IMG/VR virus record: IMGVR_UViG_3300031965_000010
DNA length: 64,000 nt
Origin: an uncultured virus (IMG/VR IMGVR_UViG_3300031965_000010)
Lineage: Duplodnaviria > Heunggongvirae > Uroviricota > Caudoviricetes
Reading direction: 5' to 3' (one strand)
Shown: positions 2,842 to 40,903 of the stretch, in pieces
Layout of the letters: each line of letters opens with the position of its first letter
Numbering within the stretch: the first letter of the stretch is position 1
Position numbers and translations under genes: made by a program
The notes under the pieces: generated by a model
Databases searched by the model: none
Seen by the model: the letters and a program-made list of their open reading frames with translations, nothing else
What the model was told of the DNA's origin: nothing

Positions 2842-3029
2842 GTGACGACGAAAAGTGTCCGAAGTGCGGCGGTGAGCTGGAGCGCGACGAGGCCGACGTC
2901 GGCGTAGGCATCGTCTACGGTCCGGCCGGGTGCCCCGCGTGCTTTTGGGTCGAAGACCCGCTGCGCGTCGTTCGCGACGTGAACGAAGACCCGCCCGAAA
3001 CACTTCCGCCCAACACGAAGGTTCAATGA
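2838..3029 (+). CDS. Small zinc-ribbon protein
   Basis: CPKCG...CPAC; GGAGG SD. Confidence 0.65.
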   Translation: MSDDEKCPKCGGELERDEADVGVGIVYGPAGCPACFWVEDPLRVVRDVNEDPPETLPPNTKVQ

Positions 3030-3331
3030 ATCCCCCACGTCCTAGAAAAATCCCTGTCGGCACGTTCGCGCCCATCGTCGTGAATCACGAAGAGCGCTCG
3101 CTCCACACCCCTGACGGCGGCGACGATGGCGTGTGGCACGCATCGCGTGGGGCTCGTCTAGTACGCTTAGGTGTCGCCTACAGCTTCGAGCAGTACACGC
3201 TCATCGCGCACGGCAGTTGCGTGTTCTGCGAAGACTGCCACCCGAAGGGCCGCTACGTGAACGAGCCCGAAGCGCTCTTGTTCGTCGAGCGCGGAGTGTT
3301 GCCCGTCTCCCCGTCGCGGCGCTCCTCGTGA
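3026..3331 (+). CDS. Hypothetical protein
   Basis: Coupled ORF with CVFCEDC. Confidence 0.55.
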   Translation: MNPPRPRKIPVGTFAPIVVNHEERSLHTPDGGDDGVWHASRGARLVRLGVAYSFEQYTLIAHGSCVFCEDCHPKGRYVNEPEALLFVERGVLPVSPSRRSS

Positions 3332-3822
3332 CACCCGCCGACTATCGCCAAATACAAAGACTTCGCGAGTCACTCGTCGAGCTGAAGAAATCAGCTCCGA
3401 AGGATGCTCGTGCTCTTCTCGATCGCGCTGCTCGTTCCTGTGAGGTTCTTCTCGAAGAGCACGATGAATATCTTCGGGTCCGCAAGGCCAAGGCCGAGGT
3501 CAAAGCCAAGAGGGATGCAAAGCTTGAAATACGCCTGCGTGGCTTGTCGCCGCGACCCCCGCCTGACGTTATGTGTTTCATTCGGTCTGGCTACAGCCTT
3601 AATGCCGTACTGTCCCGATCTGTCGCTGTTAGCGCCTTTGTGATGAAGAACAGTGGCATGTCGACGAAAGAAATCGCTGCTGTCTTTGGCTTGAGTGCCG
3701 GACACGTATCTCAAAATCTTCGCTACTTACACGTCGAAAATTTCTCGGCGGATGTCGTCGAGTGGTTCCGCGACGCACGGTGGGTTAGTGATCAACACCT
3801 GGCCAGCAACGCTGACGACTAA
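3328..3822 (+). CDS. Protein with C-terminal helix-turn-helix
   Basis: GMSTKEIAAVFGLSAGHVSQNL; GTG start overlapping the previous stop. Confidence 0.6.
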   Translation: MTPADYRQIQRLRESLVELKKSAPKDARALLDRAARSCEVLLEEHDEYLRVRKAKAEVKAKRDAKLEIRLRGLSPRPPPDVMCFIRSGYSLNAVLSRSVAVSAFVMKNSGMSTKEIAAVFGLSAGHVSQNLRYLHVENFSADVVEWFRDARWVSDQHLASNADD

Positions 3823-4013
3823 CCGCCGCGCGAAAACGTCACGCACCCATTCGCCGAATAGCGAGGCTGTTCGTGGCGTTGCTCGCTGTGCCGCCGCTCG
3901 GAGTCACGAGCGTGAGCGCTGCTGCCGACAAATGATTTCTCAACGTGAGGACCTGACCCGCAGTCGCGGCCACAATCGCAAACCCGGCGCGCGACCCAGT
4001 ACGTCACCGCCAG

Positions 4014-4265
4014 CTAGCGCTGAAACTGCGCTCGCCACATCGCTTCATCTTGCGTCATGCAGAGGAGGCGAACCTGACGAGGGTCGAACACGCAGACGAG
4101 CACGCTCGGAGTTTTCATATCGACGTCCGGCTGGAACATCACTTTCACATCTACGATGCGTGGTGTGAAGGGAAGTTTGACAGGTGCCTCGGCCACTTCC
4201 GGGATGAGCGCGCACCCGGCAGCGCCAACCAGGGAAAATACGATCACAAAAACGAGCGCACTCAT
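4014..4265 (-). CDS. Putative lipoprotein
   Basis: MSALVFVIVFSLVGAAGC signal peptide and lipobox. Confidence 0.55.
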   Translation of the reverse strand: MSALVFVIVFSLVGAAGCALIPEVAEAPVKLPFTPRIVDVKVMFQPDVDMKTPSVLVCVFDPRQVRLLCMTQDEAMWRAQFQR

Positions 4266-4288
4266 CGTCTCAACAAAGACGCGGGGTC

Positions 4289-4894
4289 TCACGGGATATC
4301 CATCGCCGTGATGTCGTCGGAGGAAAACCGCGCCGTTGCGATTCGGTCGGCCTCGCCCGGCGAGAAGATGCGCGTCTCTACAACATAGACCCGCGACCCG
4401 CCTTCGCCAGCGCCTGTATCCGAGACGCGCACGACGCCCGCGTCCGCGTAAACGTCGTAATCGAACCCACCCGAGGGACCGGAGCACACGCGCGCAAGAA
4501 GTCTCGGGCCGATCTCGCCGGGAACATCGAGCACGGTTTCGCCGATGGGTAGCTCGGATAGCGCGATGTCCGTAGCTACGAGAATGACCGCGGCATCGCC
4601 GACACCCTGTTGCGAGCGCAGCACGGAAACGACGTCGCTCCGACCGTTGAGCCGACCGTCACTCTCGGTCACGACCGTGGCCTGACCGTCGAACCCCATA
4701 CGCTCGCCGATGTCGCCCCTGAGGAAGGCCCCAGTCTCGACCGAGAGTGGGGGCGTTGTAATCGCGACGCTACCCTCGACACCGCACCCCCAAATACCGA
4801 TTACAATGCACGCGCCTCCGAGAAGGAAGCAGATCCAAAACAAGCCACCGGCAAGCGCATTTTCCAGCGCTCGCAAAAACTGCGTGCGTTTCAT
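4289..4894 (-). CDS. Membrane-anchored/exported protein
   Basis: GGGAG SD; hydrophobic N-terminus ending IWGC. Confidence 0.6.
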   Translation of the reverse strand: MKRTQFLRALENALAGGLFWICFLLGGACIVIGIWGCGVEGSVAITTPPLSVETGAFLRGDIGERMGFDGQATVVTESDGRLNGRSDVVSVLRSQQGVGDAAVILVATDIALSELPIGETVLDVPGEIGPRLLARVCSGPSGGFDYDVYADAGVVRVSDTGAGEGGSRVYVVETRIFSPGEADRIATARFSSDDITAMDIP

Positions 4895-4985
4895 TGTGTC
4901 TCCCCTGCTGCGGCGACCTGTGTGCCGGTCGACGACCACCGCCTTATTTCAGCGTAGCTTCGCTTCACGGTGCCGCCACCACGGC

Positions 4986-5070
4986 TCGAAAGTACCCGTC
5001 AGACTTCGAAAGTATCCGTCAGACTTCTAAAGTATCCGTCAGACTTCGAAAGTGCCCGTCAGACTTCAAA
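4986..5070. repeat. Intergenic tandem repeat, 4+ x 20 bp (TCGAAAGTATCCGTCAGACT)
   Basis: Units start at 4986, 5006, 5026 and 5046, with 0-2 mismatches and no spacers. Confidence 0.9.
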
Positions 5071-5156
5071 GAACGGAGGCGACGCGACGACGCGAGCCCG
5101 CGAGCCCGCGAGCCACGCCGTCACTACGCCCGTCGTCGCGCGCGCATCGTCACGAC

Positions 5157-5179
5157 GTAGCAACCCCACGCGCTATCAT
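5157..5179 (+). promoter_or_regulatory. Viral late-type promoter GTAGCA-N11-TATCAT
   Basis: Member of 11-copy motif; 6 nt before ATG 5186. Confidence 0.75.
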
Positions 5180-5185
5180 TCCCCT

Positions 5186-5851
5186 ATGAAATTCATCCGC
5201 CAGAATGACCCAGCTTGGGGCAAAGAACTGCTCGGACACTCCGCCACGACGACGATCGGCCGCAGTGGATGCCTGCTTGTCGCTCTCACCGTCGCCTACA
5301 ACGAGCTGTGCAGCGCTTCCCACACACCTCTCTCAGTTCAACGACTGCTGCTCAGCAAGAATCCGAACTCGTTCAAGGGTTCCATGCTGGTGCTGGAAAT
5401 CGCCGCGAACATCCTAGGGCTCGTCTGCCTCGAAAAGGAGCGCCTGCGGAGCGTCCCCGGTGACCCCCGGTTGCCCGATCGGGTCCTTGCCGGGCTCGGC
5501 ATCGATTTACCCGGCGACTTCGCCAAAAGACCGCAGAGCCCGCCCCTGATGATTAACCGAACGCCCCTGGCCAAAGGTGTGACCGTGGGCGGGGGCGCGG
5601 TGACTGCCGGCTCGGCGGGGCTCTGTATACTCCACGTCGACCACGACAAAGATACGCTCGGCGGAGACATCGACGGCGACCATTTCCTCAACGCGCTCGA
5701 ATGGAAAAATGGACGCGTCGAATGCCTCGACCCCGCTACGGGGAAGGTGTGCTACCTCGACGACCGCACGTTGAAGGGTGACTCCCAGTGGGGGGCCGTC
5801 ACGAAGCATTTTACCGTCGTCGGGACGATTCCGATTCGGCGCGCGAGCTAG
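5186..5851 (+). CDS. Peptidase C39-like cysteine peptidase, candidate endolysin
   Basis: QNDPAWG...TIGRSGCLL (Cys), DHF (His), LDP (Asp). Confidence 0.75.
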   Translation: MKFIRQNDPAWGKELLGHSATTTIGRSGCLLVALTVAYNELCSASHTPLSVQRLLLSKNPNSFKGSMLVLEIAANILGLVCLEKERLRSVPGDPRLPDRVLAGLGIDLPGDFAKRPQSPPLMINRTPLAKGVTVGGGAVTAGSAGLCILHVDHDKDTLGGDIDGDHFLNALEWKNGRVECLDPATGKVCYLDDRTLKGDSQWGAVTKHFTVVGTIPIRRAS

Positions 5852-6141
5852 TAGCCGACGTCTTCCGCCCGAACAGCGCGGCGTCGACTCGCCGCCGTCT
5901 TGCTCTTCTTTATTCGATCCAGAAGATCTGGAAAGTGCTTGCGCAAATAAAGCGTTTCCTTGAAACCCGCCCGGTCTTCTTTTGGAAGCTTTCGAATTTC
6001 TCGCGACAGTCGTTCCGCCACCCATCTCTTCAAAAGCACTTGATACCCCACGCCAAGCTGCTTCGCGCGAGCTTTGAGAATGGCGAGTGTGTCGTCGGGA
6101 ATGCGGATGCTGATGGCAGTGGTCTTTTCACGAACGGACAT
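5848..6141 (-). CDS. CopG/BrnA-like RHH antitoxin with YefM-like C-terminal tail
   Basis: AISIRIPDDTLAILKARAKQLGVGYQVLLKRW; tail ETLY...HFP...VRAEDVGY matches the protein at 10005. Confidence 0.75.
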   Translation of the reverse strand: MSVREKTTAISIRIPDDTLAILKARAKQLGVGYQVLLKRWVAERLSREIRKLPKEDRAGFKETLYLRKHFPDLLDRIKKSKTAASRRRAVRAEDVGY

Positions 6142-6642
6142 TCAATCCTCTTCGCGATGCGGATATGGGCGGCTGAATGCTGTGATGATGTGCCCTTTGA
6201 AGTCGAAGTCGGCCGGATTGAATCTAGGATTCAAACGTGGAAAGCGTCGAACCCGACTTCTGATGTGAAGTTCCGCGTCCCACTGTCCGAGCAAGTAACA
6301 ACCGATCAACACGTCAGGGATTTCTTCGGCAGCAACAAAAACAGGCGTCTCCACCATGTGCTCGTCGTGCTCCCCGTTGTCTGAGATCCACGCGGATGTG
6401 TAATAGCCTTCGATGGGACGACCGTACGCATCCGTCGGAAGTGTGTCCTTTTCAACGTCCGGCAGATCTAGAATTTTTCCGATCGATTTCGGAACCACGA
6501 GCCCTAGAGTGCAGCCCGTATCGATGATGGCGTTCGCGGGAACCGGAGCTTGAGGTTCTTCAAAGGGCGAAAACACGTGGATGGGCATTCGCACCACCAA
6601 CTGTGTTTCTTTACGGGTGCGGCGTCTTGGTGTTTTGGTCAT
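6142..6642 (-). CDS. Clan AA (retropepsin-like) aspartic protease
   Basis: AIIDTG catalytic motif and DVLIG motif. Confidence 0.8.
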   Translation of the reverse strand: MTKTPRRRTRKETQLVVRMPIHVFSPFEEPQAPVPANAIIDTGCTLGLVVPKSIGKILDLPDVEKDTLPTDAYGRPIEGYYTSAWISDNGEHDEHMVETPVFVAAEEIPDVLIGCYLLGQWDAELHIRSRVRRFPRLNPRFNPADFDFKGHIITAFSRPYPHREED

Positions 6643-6677
6643 GTATATACGGTATATACGGTGGTCGGCCTTGTCAA
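6643..6677 (-). promoter_or_regulatory. Sigma70-type promoter with two palindromic GTATATAC boxes
   Basis: TTGACA-N17-TACCGT; GTATATAC at 6643-6650 and 6652-6659. Confidence 0.7.
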
Positions 6678-7121
6678 CTAGACCGGCACTCCGTAGACGG
6701 GCTCCGCCGCGTGCGCGTCGATCATAAATGCGGCCGTCACTTCGAACGGAATCTTCGCGGGCTCGACCACAGCACTCCCTGCGCGCAGCGCACGGGCCGT
6801 CTGCTCAATCCCGTACGAGCGCGCGACGATGGCGAAGGCCAGCTTGTCGGCGACGGCGCAGACGTAGCTGTACGTGCGCGGACCGTTCTCCAAAAGACGA
6901 TTCGCCTTCTGCACCTCCAAGCCCATGAACACGTCCGCGCCTTTCGGAGAGGTCCAACGCGGCGCGTCCGACGACGCATCGCCGGGTTCGAGCGCGTCCG
7001 GATAAAAAACCACACTTTCCCGCAAGTGCTGCGACGTCCGCCGCCATTCTTCGACGATGACCCGAAACTCCGTCGAGATTGGGTGGTTGGGAGAGCTGCG
7101 GGGGGCGGGACGAATGTGCAT
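6678..7121 (-). CDS. Hypothetical protein
   Basis: 147-aa ORF filling the gap. Confidence 0.5.
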   Translation of the reverse strand: MHIRPAPRSSPNHPISTEFRVIVEEWRRTSQHLRESVVFYPDALEPGDASSDAPRWTSPKGADVFMGLEVQKANRLLENGPRTYSYVCAVADKLAFAIVARSYGIEQTARALRAGSAVVEPAKIPFEVTAAFMIDAHAAEPVYGVPV

Positions 7122-7187
7122 CGGAAAGGCCGGGGATGGGGAGGGGATGGGGAGGGGTTGCTAGAATACTTGGGCGCGCTATCTAAC

Positions 7188-7493
7188 ATGCCGACCGGTA
7201 AAAGCGAGGAAAACGTGCCGCACGATTGGAAAAAACAGAGCGACAAACTTTTCACTAAAATCGTCAGCGGGAAGGAGTGTCGATTCGAATTCGAACACTC
7301 GAAGAACGTGTGGACGTTCTCAGCGCATCAACTGATTCTGGATTCGTTTCCCGGTGTGCTGACCGATCCGCCGTTCGGCCAGCTCGAACAATCTGAGCTG
7401 AAGTTTTTCAGAAACGGTCTGCTGTCTACGCGCAAGGGACCGGAGGGTTACTCACAAGTCCTCACCGGAAACGGCTGGCGAGACTTGCAGTGA
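7188..7493 (+). CDS. Hypothetical protein
   Basis: MPTGKSEENV... part of the 6603-7493 ORF. Confidence 0.5.
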   Translation: MPTGKSEENVPHDWKKQSDKLFTKIVSGKECRFEFEHSKNVWTFSAHQLILDSFPGVLTDPPFGQLEQSELKFFRNGLLSTRKGPEGYSQVLTGNGWRDLQ

Positions 7494-7582
7494 CGACGAG
7501 TAATAAGAACCCTGTAGAAAATTAGCTATGTCGTAACCAACCGCAGGTTGGTTATCACCCGGTACGACGACTCGGATGAAAC

Positions 7583-7816
7583 ATGCCCCTCTACGACGTG
7601 AAATGCGACGCGTGCGGCGAAAAGAGCGAGATTCTCCTGAATCGAGCCGAGCCCGTGCCCTTGTGTCCGTGCTGCGCCGAAGACGCGCTCGTCAAAGACC
7701 CGGTGCAGGTCACGGCACCGCCCTCATTCGTGGGCTCGGGTTGGGCCAAGGACGGCTACAGTTCGGGATGGACTGCACCGTCGAGGACGGCGGCGCCTTC
7801 GTCTAGTGTGGAGTGA
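7583..7816 (+). CDS. FmdB-family zinc-ribbon protein
   Basis: MPLYDVKCDACG...CPCC...FVGSGWAKDGY. Confidence 0.85.
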   Translation: MPLYDVKCDACGEKSEILLNRAEPVPLCPCCAEDALVKDPVQVTAPPSFVGSGWAKDGYSSGWTAPSRTAAPSSSVE

Positions 7817-7835
7817 TTGCCTCGCGGAACAGCGC

Positions 7836-8900
7836 TCAGCGCGAACGCCCTGAAATCAAAGTGCGCGCGCTCTCTCGTATGCGTCGCTCGATGACGCGTA
7901 CGTACTCTCGTGAGTAGCCGTGCTTTGCGCCGATTGCCTCGAGTGAGCTTGTCTCCGTCGCTGTTACGTTCGCGGCGCCCTTTCCGTCGTCCGCGAGAAG
8001 CCGCTCGAAGACGATGTCGCGAGCAACCCCTTCGAGCGGCGTGTTTTCGAATTCCCGCAGCACGTTGAAGAGCACCTCGCGCACGAAGTCCGTCACCTGT
8101 CGGCGCTCGACTTCTGCGTCAGGTAACCTGGCGTCTTGGTCTGAGAGCGTGTCTCCGAACGTGGACGCTTCGTCGTCCGCGTGCGAGGTATAAGGGGCGT
8201 CGATCTTCGTAACTGGATTCCTTCTACGAACCTTCTTCTTCGTGTGCACGTCCACTTCGTAGCCGTCCGCCATCGCTCGACGGCTCACGGAAACGAGCGG
8301 AGAATCGTCGCGCTGTAATCGCTGCCTGAGTCTCCCTACGGCTGCACGAATCCAGTGCATCGCGAATGTGGAGAAACGTTTGTCGAAACGAGGATCGAAC
8401 GTCTCGGCAGCGCGAATGAGCCCAAGCATCGCTTCCTGTGTGTACTCGGTCTTCATCTCCGGCGACGCGCTCTTAGAGAAACCGCCTACGAACAGATGCG
8501 CGAGGCGTAGGTTTTTCTCGACTAGGAGATTGCGCGCGTCGACGTCGCCGAAGGTCTGCACTCGATACGCGAGGATTTTTTCCTGCTCGGCTGTGAGTGT
8601 TTTCCCGACGCGTCCGAGCGGCGTGTGCGGGCCGAGCGCGAGCGGCGTGTGCGGGCCGAGCGCGGACGTGGGGGTGGGGTCGGTGGGGTCGGTGGGGTCA
8701 GTGGCGTCGGTGCCGTCGATCGGCGGTCCCTCAGTGGATAGGCCGGGCGCGAGCGTCCCCTCTTCGATGTGTTTGAGGACTTCAGACGCCTCCGCGAGCA
8801 CGCCTTCGGGTCCGCGCAAGCGCTCGGCCTCTTCGGTCACTGGGCCTTGATTGCGCTTCTTTCTGAGCGGGTGTTTCGCGTATATCGGCGACGGCTTCAT
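7836..8900 (-). CDS. Viral RNA polymerase sigma-70-family factor (RpoH/RpoD-like)
   Basis: Region 2 ARNLLVEKNLRL..QEAMLGLIRAAETFDP..RFSTFAMHWIR; region 4.2 SLEAIGAKHGYSREYVRVIE. Confidence 0.9.
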   Translation of the reverse strand: MKPSPIYAKHPLRKKRNQGPVTEEAERLRGPEGVLAEASEVLKHIEEGTLAPGLSTEGPPIDGTDATDPTDPTDPTPTSALGPHTPLALGPHTPLGRVGKTLTAEQEKILAYRVQTFGDVDARNLLVEKNLRLAHLFVGGFSKSASPEMKTEYTQEAMLGLIRAAETFDPRFDKRFSTFAMHWIRAAVGRLRQRLQRDDSPLVSVSRRAMADGYEVDVHTKKKVRRRNPVTKIDAPYTSHADDEASTFGDTLSDQDARLPDAEVERRQVTDFVREVLFNVLREFENTPLEGVARDIVFERLLADDGKGAANVTATETSSLEAIGAKHGYSREYVRVIERRIRESARTLISGRSR

Positions 8901-8909
8901 TCGGCCGCG

Positions 8910-8932
8910 ATCGTACCGCGGGGTTTTGCTAC
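8910..8932 (-). promoter_or_regulatory. Viral late-type promoter GTAGCA-N11-TACGAT upstream of sigma gene
   Basis: Motif match; 9 nt before the ATG. Confidence 0.75.
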
Positions 8933-8962
8933 GCCTTCAAACTACCCCCACGCTGCTAGGCT

Positions 8963-9664
8963 TCAACCGAGTCGCTCCGGCCTCGTGTGTGTTCCGGGGC
9001 CGATGGTCTGGATGTCGTCGTCATCGTAGTTGATCTGCGTACCCCAGAGCGATTCGGCCAAGGCGTCGGCCTCGCGCTCGGTGTGGTCGTCCTGCCCGGC
9101 CTGTAACAGCGCCACGTGCGCAAGCTCGTGCATGAGCACACCACACTGTCGATCTCTGTCGAAGCTCAACACCTTCGGCGCGATGTAGACCGTCCCATCG
9201 TCCGCAGCCGCGCACGCGCGCGCCTCCGTGCGCCCGGCGAGCGCTGTGGCCTCGTCGACGACGAGCGACACCGGGTGCGGGAACGAGCCCGCGGGCGCCT
9301 CCTCGATGAGGTTGTTGAACATATCGACGATCGTCGCGGCTCGCTCACTTCTACCGGGGTTTTTCCTGCGTATTCGACTCGGCGTTGGTGAGTACGCCCA
9401 CGCGATGAGCGCTAGATGTCGTCGCGTGGGCGCGCCTTTATCGTCGAACAAAGGTTCGTCGCGCATCGTCACCTGCGCCATGTGTCGCTTGATGAAGTTT
9501 TCCCGCCTGGACTGCCATTCAGGATCTATCCGGGCGATTGAACCGCCTGCGCGCCTGTATGCCTGAATGAACCCGCGAGGAGAGCGCGCGACCTCAGAGA
9601 CGCCTCGCTTTTTCATCTCGGGAATGAACGACTCGACGACGGAGAGCGGGAGCGCGTTGTGCAT
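8963..9664 (-). CDS. Two-domain protein with C-terminal HExxH zinc-peptidase-like domain
   Basis: LMHELAH...EREADALA; domains joined by RRKNPG. Confidence 0.7.
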   Translation of the reverse strand: MHNALPLSVVESFIPEMKKRGVSEVARSPRGFIQAYRRAGGSIARIDPEWQSRRENFIKRHMAQVTMRDEPLFDDKGAPTRRHLALIAWAYSPTPSRIRRKNPGRSERAATIVDMFNNLIEEAPAGSFPHPVSLVVDEATALAGRTEARACAAADDGTVYIAPKVLSFDRDRQCGVLMHELAHVALLQAGQDDHTEREADALAESLWGTQINYDDDDIQTIGPGTHTRPERLG

Positions 9665-9669
9665 TCGAC

Positions 9670-9692
9670 ATCCTAGCGTGCTCGGGTGCTAC
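9670..9692 (-). promoter_or_regulatory. Viral late-type promoter GTAGCA-N11-TAGGAT
   Basis: Motif match; 5 nt before ATG 9664. Confidence 0.75.
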
Positions 9693-9723
9693 GTCTCGAG
9701 CGTTTGCGACTACAGCCGCGTCG

Positions 9724-10008
9724 TCATCTGTCCCTGTAATGTCCGAGAACTTGAACGATCGTAACGAGGTTCCCTTCGATGCGATAAATAATACGGTGCT
9801 TCTTCGTCAGCCGTCGGGAGTGGTACCCGGAGTAGTCGTAACGCAGCGCTTCGTAGTCGAAGCCCGGTGCCACAGGATTGGCGCGTATGTGCGCAACGAT
9901 TTGCTTCAACCGTTTTTCCCACTGTGGGTTTTCTTCAACCCGCGGTAGCTGTTCTTTGACGACTTTCTCGTCGTAGACGACGTCCCACTTCTTCGAAGAC
10001 ATGCTCAA
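9724..10008 (-). CDS. yoeB: Txe/YoeB-family toxin
   Basis: EALRYDYSGYHSRRLTKKHRIIYRI...GHY. Confidence 0.9.
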   Translation of the reverse strand: MSMSSKKWDVVYDEKVVKEQLPRVEENPQWEKRLKQIVAHIRANPVAPGFDYEALRYDYSGYHSRRLTKKHRIIYRIEGNLVTIVQVLGHYRDR

Positions 10009-10298
10009 TATCCAAGATCTTCAGCGCGCACGACCCGTTTGCGCGCGGCGCGCGTCTCGCTCTGTCGAATGTCTTCCTTCAATTCCGGAAAGTGTTGGTC
10101 GACGTAGAGCGTTTCCTGGATGGCTTTCCATTCCTCGCGAGATACGATCACAACTGCCGCTCCGTTTCGCGAGACCACTGTGATCGGCCCGACCTCACCT
10201 GCGTCCACCTGATCTACGATTGAAAACAATTCTCGACGAGCCGCCGTGACGTTGATCAGGTCGTCTTCCATGAAATCGCCGTCTGGGTTTTTGATCAC
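10005..10298 (-). CDS. yefM: Phd/YefM-family antitoxin
   Basis: NVTAARRELFSIVDQV...VVIVSREEWKAIQETLY; GGGAGG SD before GTG 10298 (alternative ATG 10271). Confidence 0.9.
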   Translation of the reverse strand: MIKNPDGDFMEDDLINVTAARRELFSIVDQVDAGEVGPITVVSRNGAAVVIVSREEWKAIQETLYVDQHFPELKEDIRQSETRAARKRVVRAEDLGY

Positions 10299-10317
10299 GA
10301 AAGCCTCCCAATGAGAA

Positions 10318-10346
10318 AGCGTACGTTTAACCGTACCTGTCGTCAA
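10318..10346 (-). promoter_or_regulatory. Sigma70-type promoter of the TA operon with palindromic operator
   Basis: TTGACG-N17-TACGCT; GTACG-N6-CGTAC at 10321-10336. Confidence 0.75.
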
Positions 10347-10627
10347 GCTCCGCCGTCGGCGTGATGTTACGTCTCGTGCGTCTACGCGTGCGTCTACGCG
10401 TGCGGCGGTAACTCCCGCATTCGAGGCGACGCGGGCAGCTCGCCGGCTATCCACACGTCTCGGACCTCGCCAGCAACGACCTTGGCGCACGTTCCGTCGG
10501 GGAATCGAACCATGATTGTGTGGACTGGCGAGACCTTTCCGAGCGGGAAGGAAACCATCCGGCGCGTGGTGACGTCTCCCACGAATCTCGAAGCGAATCT
10601 TCGGCCGCTCGCTGCGTGCACGAACGC

Positions 10628-11023
10628 TCATCTACCACGCTCGCGACGCAAGCGTGCTTCGCGATCGGTCGGCGTTTCGAGCGCGTCACGCGCGAGGTCA
10701 ACAGCGAACCTCGCCATCTCCGGAGGCAGTCGCACGATCAAAAGCTCGTCGTGACAGTGACACGTCACGGTGCCCTCCACGCCAGCCGGATAAGGAACGC
10801 CGTCCTCCGTCATCGGTCGGAAAGAAACCAAGATCGAAGTCCAGTGCTCGGCCTTACCGTTCGACAACTCCACAGAGCCCTCGAAGGCTTCAGTGATGCC
10901 CGGCGGGACATCCTTTATTGACCTCGTCCACTTCATGGCGCGCAAGGCGCCCTCGACGCGTCGGAGCGTCTGTTGAATGTCCGGGGGTTGACGGGAACCT
11001 GTACTGAGTGTGGGCGTCGGCAT
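10628..11023 (-). CDS. Hypothetical protein
   Basis: TTGACG-N16-TAATGT 6 nt before the ATG. Confidence 0.55.
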   Translation of the reverse strand: MPTPTLSTGSRQPPDIQQTLRRVEGALRAMKWTRSIKDVPPGITEAFEGSVELSNGKAEHWTSILVSFRPMTEDGVPYPAGVEGTVTCHCHDELLIVRLPPEMARFAVDLARDALETPTDREARLRRERGR

Positions 11024-11053
11024 TTTGCTACATTACCGCCGCCCACAATCCCG

Positions 11054-11272
11054 TCAAGGGGTCGCAGGCGCGGCGGGCGCGGCGGGCGCGGGCGCTTCGA
11101 CGGGTTCGACGGGAACCGCGGCGGGCGCTTCAACGACCGGTGCACCCACTTCGAGCGTCGTTCCAGCGTCCGCTGCGACGTCGGCTACGTCGGCTACGGG
11201 GGTGGCATCCAGTTCGCACGAAACCAGAGCCACGACGCCAATCAACACGCTGCCAAACAACACGGTCTTCAT
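11054..11272 (-). CDS. Small Pro/Ala-rich lipoprotein
   Basis: MKTVLFGSVLIGVVALVSC lipobox; AAGGAG SD. Confidence 0.65.
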   Translation of the reverse strand: MKTVLFGSVLIGVVALVSCELDATPVADVADVAADAGTTLEVGAPVVEAPAAVPVEPVEAPAPAAPAAPATP

Positions 11273-12018
11273 GAACCACTCCTTGGAAGTTGAGACGCGG
11301 CGTACGCGACCACGCCTACGATCGCCAGTGGGGCGACCCACCACGGAATCGTGCTGGGATTGAAAGGGTTCGGGACATTGCTCGCGGCTGCGAGAGATGT
11401 GTCGACCACTTCGATCGCAGCCTCGCGCGCTTCGTCCAACGACTGAGGAGTGACGCCTACGATCGAAGCCGTCACGGCCAACGGCAGCGACGTGAAACGA
11501 ACGATTGCTTCAACAAAGCCGACGCCGAGAATGTCGGTGATGCGCTGGGTCGCGGCCTGGACGTTGGCAAAGCCCAAAACCGAGCTTGCGGCCGTCGGGT
11601 TCGCGGCAATCGCGTTGATGCGCGTAGGCCCGACGCGCGAAGCGTAGTCGTGGGCGAGGCGCGCGGTTTCTTCCGTCTGAACATTCGTCGTGGTGTTCTT
11701 CACAAGCAACGCTTTTGCTGCGAGCGCTGCGAGACCTGCGCGGGCGATCGTAATCTGCGCCGACGTGATACCGACCGTCGCCGACGAGCCGAGGGAACCG
11801 AGCCCTCCGACGCGTTGTCGCGCGAAGTCGCGAAACACGCCGCCGCGCGTTCCAGGCTGCGGTGGGGCAAAGAAGTGCGGCCCGAGACCGTCGCGCATCC
11901 CGCGTTGCAGGCCGGGCTTGCCCGAGAACAAGCCCGTGTTACCCGCGCGCGAATTGATGGCGCCCGGAGCTTTGCCGAGACCTGAAAGGCCCTTCGCTTC
12001 GATGATCACGTACGCCAC
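11269..12018 (-). CDS. Putative virion membrane protein (C-terminal TM)
   Basis: GGAGGAG SD plus GTG; LSGLG and VGGLG motifs; WWVAPLAIVGVVAYA anchor. Confidence 0.7.
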   Translation of the reverse strand: MAYVIIEAKGLSGLGKAPGAINSRAGNTGLFSGKPGLQRGMRDGLGPHFFAPPQPGTRGGVFRDFARQRVGGLGSLGSSATVGITSAQITIARAGLAALAAKALLVKNTTTNVQTEETARLAHDYASRVGPTRINAIAANPTAASSVLGFANVQAATQRITDILGVGFVEAIVRFTSLPLAVTASIVGVTPQSLDEAREAAIEVVDTSLAAASNVPNPFNPSTIPWWVAPLAIVGVVAYAASQLPRSGS

Positions 12019-12113
12019 GCGCTCCTCCAATCCATCCGACCCTGTTCGCGCCCACCTTCGCGCCGCGCCGTTCACGACGCTCTGTTCGCGACGCTCTGTT
12101 CACGTCACGCCGT

Positions 12114-12713
12114 TCACGCCGCTGACGACTTGCGCTTCTTGCGCTCATTCAAAACGAGAACGACCGTTGCGATGGCCGCTGCGGCGCCAAGCACGAGCAT
12201 CGTCTTTCCGCCGCCCGAACTGGCTTCGCTAACCGGACTCGGGAAACGAATCGACACACCGGGACCTGGAAGAGGAGACACCACTGTTTTGGGAGCGGTC
12301 GCTTTGCCTGCCTTGTATGTGGCGTTGAACCACGCCTGCGCTTTGTCGTCGCCCGCTTTGCTGCCGTCCCCGCCCACGACAGAATTGGGCACGTGAAACT
12401 TGTAGAAGTACGTCTTGCCGGCGTCCTTGCCCGCCGCAGGCGTATTCGGAAACGTCCCGCGCACGAAGATGTACTTTTCGTTGTTAAAAAGACCCTCTTG
12501 GAACTTGTCCGCGTGTGCGGGCGGATCGCTGAACACGACTCCGGCTGCTGCAAGCTTCTTGACGGCCCTGGTGGGACCGTCTCCGGCGCCACCAGTGCCC
12601 CAGTCACCACCGACACCGCCAAACGGCGAGAACTCGGTGCCGTCCCCGCCAACAGCGCCGAGATTTCCGAGACCGCCTACCCTGCCACCGAGACCCGAGA
12701 TAATGTACGTCAT
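12114..12713 (-). CDS. Putative virion membrane protein
   Basis: MTYIISGLG start; C-terminal TM followed by ERKKRK. Confidence 0.7.
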   Translation of the reverse strand: MTYIISGLGGRVGGLGNLGAVGGDGTEFSPFGGVGGDWGTGGAGDGPTRAVKKLAAAGVVFSDPPAHADKFQEGLFNNEKYIFVRGTFPNTPAAGKDAGKTYFYKFHVPNSVVGGDGSKAGDDKAQAWFNATYKAGKATAPKTVVSPLPGPGVSIRFPSPVSEASSGGGKTMLVLGAAAAIATVVLVLNERKKRKSSAA

Positions 12714-12732
12714 TGTTGCATCCTGAAACGTC

Positions 12733-13194
12733 TCAGCGACGTCGTGCGAGAAGAACCAAACCGAGAACCGCGACCGCAGCGCCGCCGACGATGACGCCGG
12801 TCGGGATGTTTCCGAACATTCCGTTGGAAACGGGCTTTCCCGTTTGAACGTCGACGAGCACGGTCTCGCCCGTAGCCGTCGGAACCGGCTTCGTGCCCGA
12901 CGAGGACTTCGGACGCGGTCCGAGCGCAGCGACGATGGCTTGTTCGACAATTTCCGCCATGTACGGGATGTTGGCTGCGGCTGCGGCTTTCTTCGCCGCC
13001 TCGCGCATCGACATCGCCTTCGCGTCCCAAATAGCTTGCTCGACCGTCGACGATCCGCTCGCGACTTTCGAAGCCAGCTCAGCCGCGGCGCCGGGAACGC
13101 CGGCCTTCGCTTCGTTGGCGAGTTGTTCGAGCTGCGAAGCTTTCAACTTCGACACTGCGGCAGCGTCGCCGAGCCCATATAGATACGCCATCAC
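12733..13194 (-). CDS. Putative virion membrane protein
   Basis: MAYLYGLGD start; C-terminal TM plus RRR. Confidence 0.7.
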   Translation of the reverse strand: MMAYLYGLGDAAAVSKLKASQLEQLANEAKAGVPGAAAELASKVASGSSTVEQAIWDAKAMSMREAAKKAAAAANIPYMAEIVEQAIVAALGPRPKSSSGTKPVPTATGETVLVDVQTGKPVSNGMFGNIPTGVIVGGAAVAVLGLVLLARRR

Positions 13195-24370: not shown

Positions 24371-25465
24371 TTAGAGGACGTCGCGAGTTTTGCCAGTTGT
24401 TATCGGTTGGCTCTTTATCCAACCATCTGAATCTTTCGAAGCAGAGCAGACTATATCATCATCCCTTAGGATGCCGGGCACTCGTGGGCGGGATTGTTCG
24501 GCTCCCCCGCCTAGTCGTTGAACCTTCTACTCTGTTCTCTTTCGAGTCCGCAGAGCAGCTCGGCTGCTGATTGTCCAATCCACCGTTCTTTTCGACGTTC
24601 GCGCTTACCGTTACCAGTTACGCTGTAGTGTCGGTGGCTCTAAGGAGTTTCCAGCAATTCACCCAGTTTGCTGCACACCTTCCGGCGTGCAGGGACTTCA
24701 CGCAGCGAGGGCCTGTGTGTGTCGAACGCCGAACACCTTGTTCAGCATCGACTCAATCCCGTCGAGCACGCAGCCGAGCAGCTTGATGCCGTCGAACGCG
24801 TTGAGGTACGCCAAAGGGTCAAGCGCACTAGTATACGCCGTTGCCGCGTTGCCTGCGGTACCAGCAGTACCACCGGTACCCGCGCCAGGAACGTTACCAG
24901 TGATGGGTTTGTAGTTGAAGAAGTCGAGCTTCGTATGAAACCCTTGACGGGCAGGGATGGGAATATCTTTTGCTAAGAGCAAAATGTTTTCCTGGCTAGG
25001 CCATCCATTTGAAGCGATGTTGCGCGAGTTTTCAGTTGTACTGCCAAAGATGCCCATGCCTGCGGGGCAGTACACCAATTGCGACGTGAACTGATCTTTC
25101 TCAGAGCAGTTGAACGTCAGGTGGCAGCCATAGCCGAGCAGGCTGTACAGGTCGAGCGCGCGGCTGTTGGTGCCGGCGACGGTTGCGCCGTTGAGCGCCG
25201 GCAGGAGCGCCGGGTTGCCGTAGGCGTCGAATTCCGAATCCTTGAGGGACTGAAACATCATCACCGCACGAATCGCCTTCACGACGAAGGTCTGATCTGA
25301 CGTGAACGCGCCAGACGTTTGCATGTTGGTGAATTCGGCAGAACTGTTGGGCGAGTCCGAAAAGAGCCGCACGCCGTTGGTCACTTGCGAGACGCCGATT
25401 CCTCGGACCGCCATTGACCAAACGGGTTGGTGGATTCTTTCACGGGCTCCGTCAAAACGAGGCAT
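24371..25465 (-). CDS. Candidate major capsid protein (single jelly-roll type), intron-split: exon 1 25465-24756, exon 2 about 24394-24371
   Basis: AGGAAGG SD; own promoter and flanking terminators; TNMQTSGAFTSDQTFVVKAIR and LGCVLDG motifs parallel the downstream paralogs; exon 2 encodes KTRDVL*. Confidence 0.7.
24395..24755 (-). ncRNA. Group I self-splicing intron (ORF-less) in the capsid gene
   Basis: P AATTGCTGGAAA (24648-59), Q AATCAGCAG (24564-72), R GTTCAACGACTAG (24511-23), S GATATAGTCT (24448-57). P2 hairpin CTGCACGCC-GGAA-GGTGTGCAG. IGS AGUCCC pairs with exon GGGAU (U-G). Ends ATAACAACTG; boundaries +/-1 nt. Confidence 0.9.
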
Positions 25466-25553
25466 TGTGTACCTGTCCTTCCTACGTTTTTTAAGAGGTG
25501 GCATCCTCTGTTGTTGAAGGTCTCCCCGGAGGATTCCGGGGAGAACACGAGGC

Positions 25554-25576
25554 ATACTAGCCGACGTTTTTGCTAC
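25554..25576 (-). promoter_or_regulatory. Viral late-type promoter GTAGCA-N11-TAGTAT
   Basis: Motif match directly after a terminator. Confidence 0.8.
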
Positions 25577-25608
25577 ATCATCGAAGCGCAGCGACGTCGA
25601 CTCCAAGC

Positions 25609-36905: not shown

Positions 36906-38150
36906 ATGCCCGCCCGTCCCTCCCTTACTGCCGTCCCATCGACCCCCGCCGCTCCCTCGGCCGACGCGTCTCCCTTGCGAGCTTGGCTCACCTCAGCCGA
37001 GTCGCAATACCTGCAACGCGGTCCGGTGCTCCGCGCACTGGCGCTCGCGATGATCTGCGCCCGCCCCATAAACGTCTTGCTAGTCGGCCCTCCCGGCACG
37101 GCGAAAACCGCCATCTCTCACGCGTTCGCTAGTGCCTGCGGCGCGCGCTTCCTGGCCCGCACTCTCTCCCCTTGGACCGACGCCGCGGAATTGCTCGGTC
37201 CGGTTGACCTCGCTGCGCTGCAACGCGGGGAGCTGCAACGCGCGACGTCAATCACGCGCCCCACGCTCCTAGACGCGGACATGGTCCTAACCGACGAGCT
37301 TCCCCGCGCCTCGCCCGGCATCCGCGCGATGATGCTGTCCGCACTCTCTGACCGTCGCACACCATCGGACGACCCAGTGCCCGCGCACGTCATCGTGGCC
37401 GGTGCCAACACGCGGTTGACCTCCGAAGAGGACCGCGCGCTAGTCGATCGTTTCGCGCTGCGCGTCGAGGTTCCGCGGCTCATGTCGGCGCCAGATCTGC
37501 GTGCCGTGCTCACTCGGGAGGTCACCGTCAACGGCGCCCCCCAAACGTCCGCGGCGCTCCCCGCGCTCCCCGTTGGCCTCGTCGCCGCGCTGCGCGCACA
37601 CTCCGCTACCGTCGACCTCCCCGGCGACGTCGCCGACGCGTTGACCTCCCTTGCCTTGGCTCTGCGACAACCCGCGCCATCGGGCGCAAGCTATCCCGAC
37701 GTGTCAGAGCGCCGCTGGGTCCTCACAACGCGCGTACTCCAAGCGTCCGCCACGCTCTCCGACCGTTCCACCGTGGAATGGTCCGATCTGACCTCGACAC
37801 TGCCGATGATTCTCGACGACGGACCCGAGTCACGCGCCGCCGTTGCGAACGCAATCACAGCGTGCGTGCCGCGTTACGTGCGCGCTTTGGATGACCTCGA
37901 CGCCGCAATTACAACGGCGACCGAGCGCGCGCGCCGCGTCGGGGGTGTCGTCGACATCCGCCCCGGCGAAGCAGACGAGCACGCCAAACGCGCCGAGACA
38001 TTCGACGCGCTCCTATCCGCGCTACGCCCCTACGGCGCTTCCGTCATCGCGCAAGCCGAGGACCGTATCGAGCGCGGTAACGATGCCATCGACGCCGCGT
38101 ACGTCGACGGCGCGAACGCCTACAACGCAGCACGCAAGGCCCGCCGATGA
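36906..38150 (+). CDS. MoxR/RavA-family AAA+ ATPase
   Basis: VLLVGPPGTAKT, ELLGP, LTDE, ALVDRF, SERRW. Confidence 0.9.
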   Translation: MPARPSLTAVPSTPAAPSADASPLRAWLTSAESQYLQRGPVLRALALAMICARPINVLLVGPPGTAKTAISHAFASACGARFLARTLSPWTDAAELLGPVDLAALQRGELQRATSITRPTLLDADMVLTDELPRASPGIRAMMLSALSDRRTPSDDPVPAHVIVAGANTRLTSEEDRALVDRFALRVEVPRLMSAPDLRAVLTREVTVNGAPQTSAALPALPVGLVAALRAHSATVDLPGDVADALTSLALALRQPAPSGASYPDVSERRWVLTTRVLQASATLSDRSTVEWSDLTSTLPMILDDGPESRAAVANAITACVPRYVRALDDLDAAITTATERARRVGGVVDIRPGEADEHAKRAETFDALLSALRPYGASVIAQAEDRIERGNDAIDAAYVDGANAYNAARKARR

Positions 38151-39259
38151 CCGCTCACACGTCCGCCCCGTCCGCAACGTCCGCCACGAAAGGAACCGCC
38201 CCTATGAACGCCCCCGCAAAAACCACGTCCGCTAGCTCCGTCGTCGCCACGCTCGCCACCGTCGCCGCACACGTCGACCCCGCCACGTTTCACAAAGACA
38301 CGCCCCCCGGCGTCGCGGGCGTGCTCGTCTTCTTCGGACCCCCGTCAACGAAGCCCGCGCCGTCGACGATGCGCAACACGTTCGAGGATGCGATCGTTGG
38401 GCGCGCGCTCCCCGTCGACGCCACGCCCGCGATGCACGAACGCGCTAGCGCGTTCCTCGCCTCGCTCCCCGACGTCGTTAGCCCGGTCGCCGCGCTCGGT
38501 ATCGCCGTCAACCATGCGACGGACGGGAAATCGAAGTGGGTGCACAACCGCACGTTTCAAAAGGCGTCCCGGCACACCTACTGCGCCGCCAACGTCACGG
38601 CGGACACCGTGAGCATCCACGGCGCGGGAACGTGCGCGGAGGCATCCGCCGACGGCACCTTGACGATTGAATCCGGAGTGCCGCAAGCCATCGCGGACCG
38701 TCTCCGCGCCGCGTACCTCGCCGCGCGTGGCGTCGTCGAGACATCCCGCGTGTCCGCGCTGATCGCCGCGTACCTCACCAAAATGGGCGGCCGGGCGATC
38801 GGCTCCGCCGCGTACCTACTCCCATCGATCGACCCCGTCACGTGCGGCGTGCTCGCCGGTCTCTCTGACCTCGGGGGTTTCGCGTTGACCTACGCGGTCG
38901 CCGACCCCGCGCAAGTCGCCGCGCTCGCTGCGCCCGTCACCCAGTCAATCGAAGAGCAAATTGCCGACGTGACCGAGGCCGCGCGGCTCTTCGTTGAAAA
39001 GGCCCGCGACGTTGCGAACGGTGCGACCGTCGAGGTCACGACCGACGACGGCACGACGAAAACCCGCAACGTGTCGATCAAGTCGACCTCCATCGATACG
39101 CTGCGCGCGAACATTGAAAATGCCCGCAAGGCCGCGTCATTGTGGCGTGACCGTCTCCAGCTCGCGTCCCTCGACGTCGACGACGCCTTGACCGCGCTCG
39201 ACGCCGACGCCGACGCCGCATCCCGCGCCGCGCTCGAAGCCATGAAGGCCCGCAAGTAG
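38147..39259 (+). CDS. Hypothetical protein between the AAA and VWA genes
   Basis: Coupled 370-aa ORF. Confidence 0.75.
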   Translation: MTAHTSAPSATSATKGTAPMNAPAKTTSASSVVATLATVAAHVDPATFHKDTPPGVAGVLVFFGPPSTKPAPSTMRNTFEDAIVGRALPVDATPAMHERASAFLASLPDVVSPVAALGIAVNHATDGKSKWVHNRTFQKASRHTYCAANVTADTVSIHGAGTCAEASADGTLTIESGVPQAIADRLRAAYLAARGVVETSRVSALIAAYLTKMGGRAIGSAAYLLPSIDPVTCGVLAGLSDLGGFALTYAVADPAQVAALAAPVTQSIEEQIADVTEAARLFVEKARDVANGATVEVTTDDGTTKTRNVSIKSTSIDTLRANIENARKAASLWRDRLQLASLDVDDALTALDADADAASRAALEAMKARK

Positions 39260-39327
39260 CGCGCGCGACGCTCACGTCCTGCCCCCGTCCCTCGACGGGG
39301 TCACAGGTGAACGCCGCTCGGTTCCGT

Positions 39328-39361
39328 CCGTCCCGTCCCGTCCCGTCCCGTCCCGTCCCGT
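39328..39361. repeat. (CCGTC)n pentanucleotide microsatellite
   Basis: About 7 copies, just upstream of the VWA gene SD. Confidence 0.9.
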
Positions 39362-39379
39362 TTCCCTCCAGAGGTTCCC

Positions 39380-40903
39380 ATGTCCGCACCCCTTGACCCC
39401 CGCGTCGCCCGCCTTGAATCCGCATCCGACCCCGCGCCGTCCGCGCACGAGCGCGGACCCGTGGCGCGTCTCCAATGGCGCCATGGCCTCGACGTTGACG
39501 TCGACCTCGCACGCGTCACCGTCGACACGCCCGCCGTGCCCATGGAATGGTCCGCGCTCCTCGCCGAAACACACGCGGCGCTCCTCGATCCGACGGGCCT
39601 GCGTTCGCTCGACCGACCCTCGCCGATCGGCGTGTCCGTGACGGATTCCCTTCGCGCTGCGCCCGCGTGGCAAGGGCTCGCCGACGCCGCACGCTCGCAC
39701 CCGCTCATCGCCCGCGAGGCCGTTGTGCAGCTCGCCGACGTCGTCAAGGGCGCGCTATTGAAAGCCGGGGCGCGTTCCGCCACGGACGCCCGCCGTTCCC
39801 TCGCTGACCTCGACGCCGCACGCGCCGCCCTTGAACGCGCACGCGCCGCGCAGAAGGCCGCGCAAGGCGACACATCACCGGAAGGCCGGAAGGCGCTCCG
39901 CGAAGCACTCAAGGCCGCCACGGACGCGCAAGCGGCCGAGGAACGCGCGCACGGCGCGGTCAACGCGGACGCCGCGATTGCGCAACGTACGGGCGATGCA
40001 CTCGACGAGGCCGGCGACGCTATCGCCGCAATCGCGCAAGCCGCGCAAGGTCGCGCCGACGCCGCGCACGCTTTTTCGAACGCGTGCGGGTCCGGGGTCG
40101 GCGTCGGCGGTACGGCCCCGCTCGCGGATGACGTCGTAAAGGCCCTTACTCCCGAGGTCGCCGCGATGCTCCGCGCCGTGGGCGCCATCCGCAAGGCACT
40201 CCAAGCGGGACGCGCAGCGCGCCACGTGCGAGGCCGGGAAGGAATGGTGGGCGTCACTCAGGGAGGAATCGAGCACGCCGCAGATCTGACCTCGCTGGCC
40301 CTCGCTGGCCTTGCTGGACACCTTGGCTCCCCGATGGCTGCTTTGACGCGCCTCGCGCTCGTTGAGAGTCGCGCCGACGTCGTCGAAAAGGGCGGCGGGC
40401 TCGCACGCAACGGTGACGTGATCGTAGTCGTCGATCAGTCCGGGTCGATGGAAGGCCCCCGCGCCTTGTGGGCCGGTGCGCTCGCGCTCGCGGTCCTCCT
40501 CGAAGCTCGCGCCGACGGTAGAACCGCCGCGCTCGTCACGTTTGACACTCACGTGCGCGCTTCGATCGTCGTCGATTCACCCGATAGCCTCGCTCGTGCC
40601 GTCGTCGCGTTGTCCGTACAATCCGACGGCGGAACCGGACTACGCGCGGCATTGTCCGAGGCGTGCGCCGTGCTCGGTCGCATGCCCCACGGGGGAGACC
40701 CCGCCGATGCGCTGTTGATCACGGACGGTGGATGGGACGCCGACGCGTTGCAAGGATGGCCGGACCGCGCCCGCCTGCGTGGCTGTTTCATCGGTGGCAG
40801 CGCACCGACCGGCAGCACGTTCGCGTCCACGTGGGAAGTCCGCGCAACGGAAGGGGTGGACGCGGAAGCGCTCGCCGTCGAGATTGCGTCTGTAATCGTC
40901 TAA
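39380..40903 (+). CDS. ViaA-like von Willebrand A domain protein
   Basis: MIDAS DQSGSM...GGT...LITDG. Confidence 0.9.
   Translation: MSAPLDPRVARLESASDPAPSAHERGPVARLQWRHGLDVDVDLARVTVDTPAVPMEWSALLAETHAALLDPTGLRSLDRPSPIGVSVTDSLRAAPAWQGLADAARSHPLIAREAVVQLADVVKGALLKAGARSATDARRSLADLDAARAALERARAAQKAAQGDTSPEGRKALREALKAATDAQAAEERAHGAVNADAAIAQRTGDALDEAGDAIAAIAQAAQGRADAAHAFSNACGSGVGVGGTAPLADDVVKALTPEVAAMLRAVGAIRKALQAGRAARHVRGREGMVGVTQGGIEHAADLTSLALAGLAGHLGSPMAALTRLALVESRADVVEKGGGLARNGDVIVVVDQSGSMEGPRALWAGALALAVLLEARADGRTAALVTFDTHVRASIVVDSPDSLARAVVALSVQSDGGTGLRAALSEACAVLGRMPHGGDPADALLITDGGWDADALQGWPDRARLRGCFIGGSAPTGSTFASTWEVRATEGVDAEALAVEIASVIV

Follow-up and report, generated by a model that had tools for sequence, protein, structure and literature searches.

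The 64,000-nucleotide stretch of DNA analysed here (the window) belongs to an uncultured virus, IMG/VR record IMGVR_UViG_3300031965_000010, a soil virus-like element that carries on its minus strand one toxin-antitoxin (TA) pair, yefM-yoeB, and a second operon encoding a retropepsin-like protease and a chimeric protein. Our principal observation is that the chimera, to judge by its sequence, is a clean domain swap, present in a single element, in which a ribbon-helix-helix (RHH) domain of BrnA type is joined to the toxin-binding half of a YefM antitoxin. With its well-supported operator, the operon is in our assessment a new variant in type II TA organisation. The features concerned are these:

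5848..6141, minus strand: putative chimeric repressor/antitoxin, 97 amino acids, with a BrnA/CopG-type RHH at about residues 4-52 and a YefM-derived tail at residues 52-97
5851..5988, minus strand: the YefM-derived tail, which keeps E62, T63, Y65, L66, P71, I77 and the terminal hydrophobic strand, and has lost W57
6142..6642, minus strand: retropepsin-like (clan AA) aspartic protease, 166 amino acids (148 from the second Met), with D41-T-G and the hydrophobic-hydrophobic-G114 motif intact
6643..6659, no strand: two GTATATAC palindromes (6643-6650 and 6652-6659), predicted RHH operator, overlapping the putative -10 and leaderless transcript start
6649..6677, minus strand: putative promoter TTGACA-17-TACCGT, with TTGACA at 6677-6672 and 6 bases from the -10 to the protease ATG
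9724..10002, minus strand: YoeB/Txe toxin, 92 amino acids, above family cut-offs; E, R, R and the C-terminal HY align with solved YoeBs
10005..10298, minus strand: YefM antitoxin, 97 amino acids, with a GTG start and an alternative ATG at 10271
10321..10346, minus strand: yefM-yoeB promoter TTGACG-17-TACGCT, with a GTAC-N8-GTAC operator at 10321-10336

An earlier note, made from the letters of this DNA, had described a domain-shuffled protein sharing its tail with the resident YefM while using an unrelated DNA-binding domain, and both halves of that description hold; the open reading frame (ORF) coordinates and the tails of the two proteins were checked and agree with it. Over residues 52-97 the chimera and the resident YefM are identical at 22 of 46 positions without a gap (BLASTP, E 3e-15), and over the last 36 residues at 21; the local score is 126, whereas 5000 shuffles averaged 25.5 (sd 4.5) and never went above 55. 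The DNA-binding domains are CopG_antitoxin (PF12441, 30.5 bits, cut-off 28) in the chimera and PhdYeFM_antitox (PF02604) in YefM, while the chimera has no match to PF02604, the Phd/YefM DNA-binding domain, and a YefM profile covers its residues 54-83 only. As DNA the last 111 bases of the tails are 57% identical (65, 76 and 30% at the three codon positions), and over 36 codons pS is 0.84 (saturated) and pN 0.30, in an open frame; this divergence marks the pair of tails as old homologues and not as an assembly duplicate. An assembly chimera or duplication artefact is ruled out by the same identity and by two Logan contigs from one run, 3000-7609 (depth 12.6) and 7587-13000 (depth 13.6), which match the window letter for letter, with zero differences, in a run that is possibly the source sample of this DNA and so is not independent sampling. 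Because these contigs share only 23 bases (7587-7609; fewer than 31), the run provides no bridge between the protease-chimera and yefM-yoeB modules; chimera, protease, YefM and YoeB are each listed on a 78,270-base contig in the protein collection. Convergence of the tails is ruled out by the shuffle test and by lineage-specific motifs. In the PDB the chimera matched Taq polymerase and YefM matched designed TIM barrels; both were set aside as chance similarities.

Those motifs, HFP and VRA.D.GY in the distal tail, are common to the element's YefM lineage only and absent from 18 other YefMs. The chimera tail is identical at 21/36 positions to the resident YefM, at 20/36 to a sister YefM (P0071, from a cluster of five members) and at 8-14/36 to the 18 others; the sister is 93% identical overall to the resident YefM, the chimera tail 58%. 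A profile built from the 18 others alone ranks the chimera second in the six frames of the window (E 0.02). The motifs are also absent from another 18 YefM matches, obtained from 391 genomes of Myxococcota, a phylum sampled only because RHH relatives occur there; every one of these matches begins in the DNA-binding domain. Scans of viral and metagenome contigs yielded no locus of the resident YefM lineage. The YefM origin proposed for the tail is borne out, and on these identities its source is this lineage's YefM.

Whether the tail could still engage a toxin can be judged from the Staphylococcus aureus complex, in which, according to PMC7544224, the C-terminal half of YefM (41-81) wraps YoeB and contacts it through E50, T51, Y53, L54, L64, I68, L71 and the terminal strand; the chimera tail extends over this wrapping region. 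Mapping by motif, with ETLY and P as anchors, places the first five at E62, T63, Y65, L66 and I77 of the chimera; I68 and L71 fall on K81 and A84, positions likewise non-conserved in the resident YefM. The loss of W57, invariant across 21 aligned YefMs, would be consistent with the loss of the YefM DNA-binding core. On its family matches the resident yefM-yoeB pair is canonical: PF02604, TIGR01552, PF06769 and TIGR02116 are all above cut-off, and yefM precedes yoeB, the two being described as overlapping. The ORFs scanned in the window include no RelE-type toxin besides YoeB, which looks active, its E, R, R and HY occupying what we take to be the catalytic positions. GTAC-N8-GTAC is given as the core YefM operator in PMC7544224. 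We allow the chimera tail a slightly better than even chance of binding the resident YoeB.

The DNA-binding half points to a different family. Among 1.84 billion representatives there were 80 non-self matches, 79 to the RHH, one (P0071) to the tail only and none to both. The RHH is 42-57% identical to a BrnA-like subfamily and scores 31.9 bits against NF047399, under the cut-off of 60, with PF12441 above its own. At least 25 extra N-terminal residues are present in 67 of the 79 relatives (a count made after removing four rows that were no RHH matches), and the RHH of the chimera begins at residue 4. By this alignment it is a BrnA-type domain minus its N-terminal arm of about 35 residues, a point absent from the earlier note; the arm is, we assume, the part of a BrnA-type antitoxin that binds BrnT. 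The relatives bear many different C-terminal extensions. In 28 comparison loci (26 from genomes of Chloroflexota, Myxococcota, Planctomycetota and others, and two viral), a BrnT-like gene or fragment lies upstream of the RHH in 23; BrnT is missing in the other five and several are frameshifted, so that broken or orphan members are common. Weak matches to PF04365, all under cut-off, were found in seven of the nine upstream BrnT-like ORFs scanned, and a Thermus homologue of the RHH sits behind a BrnT gene. BrnT-like sequence is present in 53 of 68 metagenome loci and a YefM tail in none of the 68, in a search with a positive control, and a BrnT-like profile found nothing in the six frames of the window (best E 2). 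BrnA is described as having a C-terminal RHH and controlling brnTA (PMC11980606, PMC5086665), and COG2929-COG5304 as a gene pair (PMC2701414). As a separate observation, loci L002-L027 and L130-L197 delineate a compact BrnT-like/BrnA-like TA subfamily under the Pfam BrnT cut-off in Chloroflexota, Myxococcota and Planctomycetota, its toxins having an acidic N-terminal extension and its operator, GTATATAC, being conserved.

In the window GTATATAC occurs only twice (6643 and 6652), flanking the putative -10 of the protease gene. An exact copy lies 400-650 bases upstream of the RHH match, in front of the BrnT-like toxin gene, in 20 of the 28 genome and viral loci, and the 250-base upstream windows, 7,000 bases in all, contain 27 copies, against one in 136,269 bases elsewhere and none in 121,698 control-locus bases; it recurs in 50 of the 68 metagenome loci, 49 of which also have BrnT. 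We infer strongly, as a new result, that this RHH subfamily uses the GTATATAC boxes as its operator, and the conservation argues as strongly for predicted autorepression of the operon by the chimera. The palindromes had earlier been proposed as an operator and the RHH gene placed directly behind a DTG protease gene, itself in the toxin position, under a TTGACA overlapped by two GTATATAC copies; these proposals are upheld, the -10 being weak, with the retropepsin gene first, the RHH second and the motifs intact. The chimera ATG abuts the protease stop codon, an AGAGGA element lies within the last protease codons, and translation of the two genes looks coupled. Since RHH family, operator and gene order are shared with brnTA loci, the operon can be said to keep an operator, a repressor and a gene order of brnTA type. 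A consensus promoter scan of 5500-10700 returned no promoters. Promoters of the form TTGAC[AG]-17-TANNNT stand at 6677, 10346 and 11057 on the minus strand, and two of the three place an ATG 6-7 bases past the -10, which suggests leaderless transcripts.

The protease is assigned by its motifs and by remote comparison. It has no Pfam match, and TIGR03698 reaches E 5.4e-4, under cut-off. In an alignment of 12 sequences (the protease and 11 bacterial retropepsins) the D and G of D-T-G and the later Gly are invariant, and a profile from the other 11 alone singles out the protease in the window (E 1.6e-4). The Atlas groups it with retropepsins by features (0.94), with a model TM of 0.64 to retropepsin clusters; our own model is weak (pLDDT 50; 37 for a single-sequence fold), and its best Foldseek match is a retroviral protease at E 7.8e-3, none falling below 1e-3. 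Protein, viral and genome searches gave no true relative, with weak partial matches in 2/301 and 2/301 genomes. Proteolytic activity, as a dimer, is predicted.

Small retropepsins do occur elsewhere in TA-like settings. DUF5678 gave six matches (five distinct loci) in 301 sampled genomes, each followed by a retropepsin-like ORF, one of them with a DTR variant and a TIGR03698 match. Twelve of 16 inspected protease loci contain a motif-bearing ORF, two of these with a small DUF5678-like partner and ten without, so that many appear to stand alone; by eye, none of the inspected loci has an RHH downstream. At L034 the partner is an RHH-DUF5678 fusion, and at L015 a DUF5678-like ORF, a retropepsin and a BrnT-less BrnA-like gene follow one another, the L015 protease being not detectably close to that of the element (E 0.085). 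No DUF5678-like ORF was found in the window (best E 2.7). As retropepsins travel in TA-like units, the layout seen here could credibly be either a working unit or the outcome of a deletion. L034, L045, L062-L067 and L015 are in their own right DUF5678-retropepsin two-gene TA-like units, in some of which DUF5678 is joined to an RHH, and the literature searches made gave no published description of such pairs. Beside yoeB itself, 59 bases behind it, the minus-strand ORF at 8963-9664 resembles an HExxH metallopeptidase, with weak SprT, M78/IrrE and DUF2201_N matches, and is a second candidate protease for cleavage of an antitoxin or repressor.

We propose that the genes for protease and chimera make up a single operon under autorepression, derived from a module of brnTA type, whose promoter would be kept off by an RHH dimer on the two GTATATAC boxes. 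The BrnT-like toxin and the N-terminal arm would have gone, the retropepsin would be cargo in the toxin slot, and the repressor, having gained the toxin-binding half of the lineage's YefM, would bind the element's YoeB in trans. The chimera could then have two roles, that of a reserve antitoxin for YoeB and that of a sensor: turnover of YefM would free YoeB, which would load on the chimera and alter its grip on the operator, so that the protease level would follow the state of yefM-yoeB. To an autorepressed protease operon whose repressor doubles as spare antitoxin and sensor we give a little less than an even chance. The step by which YoeB occupancy tunes repression, and so the protease level, is weakly suggested by analogy with conditional cooperativity, and cleavage of antitoxins by the protease is weaker still. 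Quite improbable is a self-amplifying four-gene switch, in which free YoeB would bind the chimera and derepress the retropepsin, and its cleavage of the YefM-type tails of both antitoxins would release more YoeB; if true, it would be an element-encoded type II toxin trigger joining parts of two TA families, and no bacterial retropepsin would have been given a part in the control of TA systems before.

Several observations weigh against the proposed role of the chimera as repressor, spare antitoxin and sensor. No protein related to it over its full length turned up among 5.8 billion proteins, 1.84 billion representatives, viral contigs or phage and plasmid records, the YefM tail is found in none of 159 loci examined, and no collection searched contains a second copy of the chimera or of its operon; the search that the earlier note had proposed, for operons of a protease plus an RHH with a YefM tail elsewhere, gave none. 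The two operons of the element are three to four unrelated genes apart, and nothing ties the protease to either antitoxin; small retropepsins elsewhere usually have DUF5678 partners, unlike this one. The -10, TACCGT, matches at 3 of 6 positions. A viral scan returned 62 stretches with TTGAC and two boxes, the matches listed (at least 47% GC, labelled by eye) including BrnT-BrnA-like, other toxin-RHH and MazEF-like pairs and several operons of cargo plus a small RHH; GTATATAC pairs are thus not exclusive to the subfamily, and cargo with an autorepressor is a common layout. The tail differs from the resident YefM at 15 of 36 positions, and in PMC8717551 S. aureus YefM-YoeB paralogues, which share only 25% identity, do not cross-neutralise. 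The saturation at synonymous sites agrees with selection acting on the chimera, and agrees just as well with recent fusion from a yefM that had diverged beforehand.

That last possibility leads to the unlikely alternative that the fusion is recent or idle, the RHH doing no more than repress its own operon, with the protease as cargo, and the tail being a recombination passenger in a TA-rich region. The chimera is a singleton, RHH relatives carry assorted C-terminal extensions, the subfamily has many broken or orphan members (five of 28 loci without BrnT, several frameshifted), viral cargo-plus-RHH operons are common, and deletion from a layout like that of L015, with its DUF5678-retropepsin unit before a BrnT-less BrnA-like gene, would give the protease-RHH adjacency. 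A passenger is however harder to reconcile with a junction that is in frame and takes exactly the whole toxin-binding half to its last residue, keeping the contact residues and dropping the one tied to the lost YefM DNA-binding core, or with the clean removal of the arm and the apparent coupling of translation.

Equally doubtful is that the tail serves against a foreign YoeB, that of a related competing element or a host, as an orphan antitoxin in anti-addiction or counter-defence, with the RHH serving only autoregulation; a tail derived from the yefM of such an element or host, or one that has drifted towards it, is improbable to the same degree. Orphan antitoxins are proposed as anti-addiction modules in PMC7354431. 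A related element with this YefM does exist, in the cluster of five, and the distance of the tail (58%, against 93% overall for the sister YefM) would allow a more distant donor lineage. Phage orphan antitoxins reportedly counter DarTG1. The distal motifs HFP and VRA.D.GY, which belong to the element's lineage and occur neither in the 18 other YefMs nor in the 18 YefM matches from 391 genomes, tell against a foreign target, and they make a host YoeB less likely than that of a sister element. We think it very unlikely that the operon is a new type II pair, with the retropepsin as toxin and the chimera as cognate antitoxin, its tail having been turned into an inhibitor of the protease or a bait for it. 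The protease does occupy the toxin position under a TA-type operator, all six DUF5678 matches precede a retropepsin-like ORF, and the L034 partner is an RHH-DUF5678 fusion; yet the tail keeps YoeB-contact residues and has no DUF5678 domain, no window ORF supplies one, ten of the 12 inspected protease ORFs lack such a small partner, and a retropepsin TA toxin is undescribed in the literature searches made.

The operon has partial analogues among known systems. With BrnT-BrnA (COG2929 with COG5304/COG3514; PF04365 with PF12441/PF14384) it shares a gene in the toxin slot followed by an RHH antitoxin, autoregulation of its own promoter (here predicted) and, within the RHH subfamily, the GTATATAC operator; it differs in having no BrnT, no arm of some 35 residues, an N-terminal RHH with a YefM tail and a protease as first gene. 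Of YefM-YoeB (Axe-Txe) systems, 9724-10346 is a full member and the chimera has the toxin-binding half, but it lacks the Phd/YefM DNA-binding domain and is encoded 3.6 kb from yoeB, in a separate transcript and under another operator. Like phage and plasmid orphan antitoxins (anti-addiction, or DarG-like counter-defence in phages), it is an antitoxin module of a mobile element with no cognate toxin gene next to it; unlike them, it accompanies the matching toxin and full antitoxin on the same element and is a chimera of two families. ImmA/IrrE-ImmR and RosmerTA also set a protease gene beside repressor or TA genes, but theirs are zinc metalloproteases acting on helix-turn-helix (HTH) repressors, whereas here an aspartic retropepsin accompanies an RHH, with no evidence of cleavage. 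The DUF5678-retropepsin pairs are alike in their small clan AA protease, two-gene TA-like form and occasional RHH-bearing partner, and unlike in that the partner is upstream with DUF5678, here downstream with a YefM tail. In the literature searched, the combination of a retropepsin or aspartyl protease with TA genes and chimeric BrnA/YefM antitoxins is undescribed, though supplementary tables of TA surveys may hold cases. Earlier work has already described modular antitoxins, the swapping of partners and TA circuits with metalloproteases (PMC10440598 and PMC2701414); RHH-YoeB fusions have been reported as well, and PMC3973734 places a retropepsin close to CRISPR loci of archaea.

That antitoxins are modular is as a rule deduced from networks of whole families. 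In this element a donor-like gene and the product occur together and the donated repressor still has its operator, so that the swap is testable with four small genes. Should the chimera bind YoeB, a toxin would be signalling to an operon to which it does not belong; should the tail be idle, this is a minor example of TA debris. Either way the locus offers a handle on small bacterial retropepsins, which are found in TA-like pairs and whose role is undescribed in the literature searched.

The protease-chimera operon lies about 3 kb beyond yefM-yoeB on the same strand, in an element whose ORFs include PolA, primase, helicase, a ParB-like protein, a sigma factor and an M23 peptidase, a content that fits a virus or virus-like replicon. 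No capsid protein was identified among the window ORFs, a candidate capsid ORF at 24698-25606 being without a match; PolA has no relative in viral contigs, and none of nine proteins matched the PADLOC anti-phage defence models. A long minus-strand block at 11000-36000 consists of ORFs without family matches, many ending in a hydrophobic helix and basic residues, several beta-rich in appearance and two arginine-rich with RRNP repeats; it also encodes a transglutaminase and an M23 peptidase, and suggests a tailless membrane-containing virion. Convergent on the chimera is a plus-strand ORF at 5186-5851 without family matches in profile scans; it has QND...GC and then a later H, by eye presumably the motif of a papain-like peptidase. 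Upstream of it, at 4990-5070, a unit of about 20 bases (CTTCGAAAGTATCCGTCAGA-like) occurs four times almost unchanged, again noted by eye. The sigma factor, at 7836-8900 on the minus strand, is of the Sigma-70 family, with RpoH and RpoS as nearest models, and a plus-strand ORF at 3133-3822 has a weak match to a sigma region 4 HTH. A MoxR-type AAA ATPase and a vWA protein, with an uncharacterised ORF in between, are encoded at 36906-40903 on the plus strand, and a further small RHH-like ORF (RHH_1, E 0.001) lies at 20-406, also on the plus strand.

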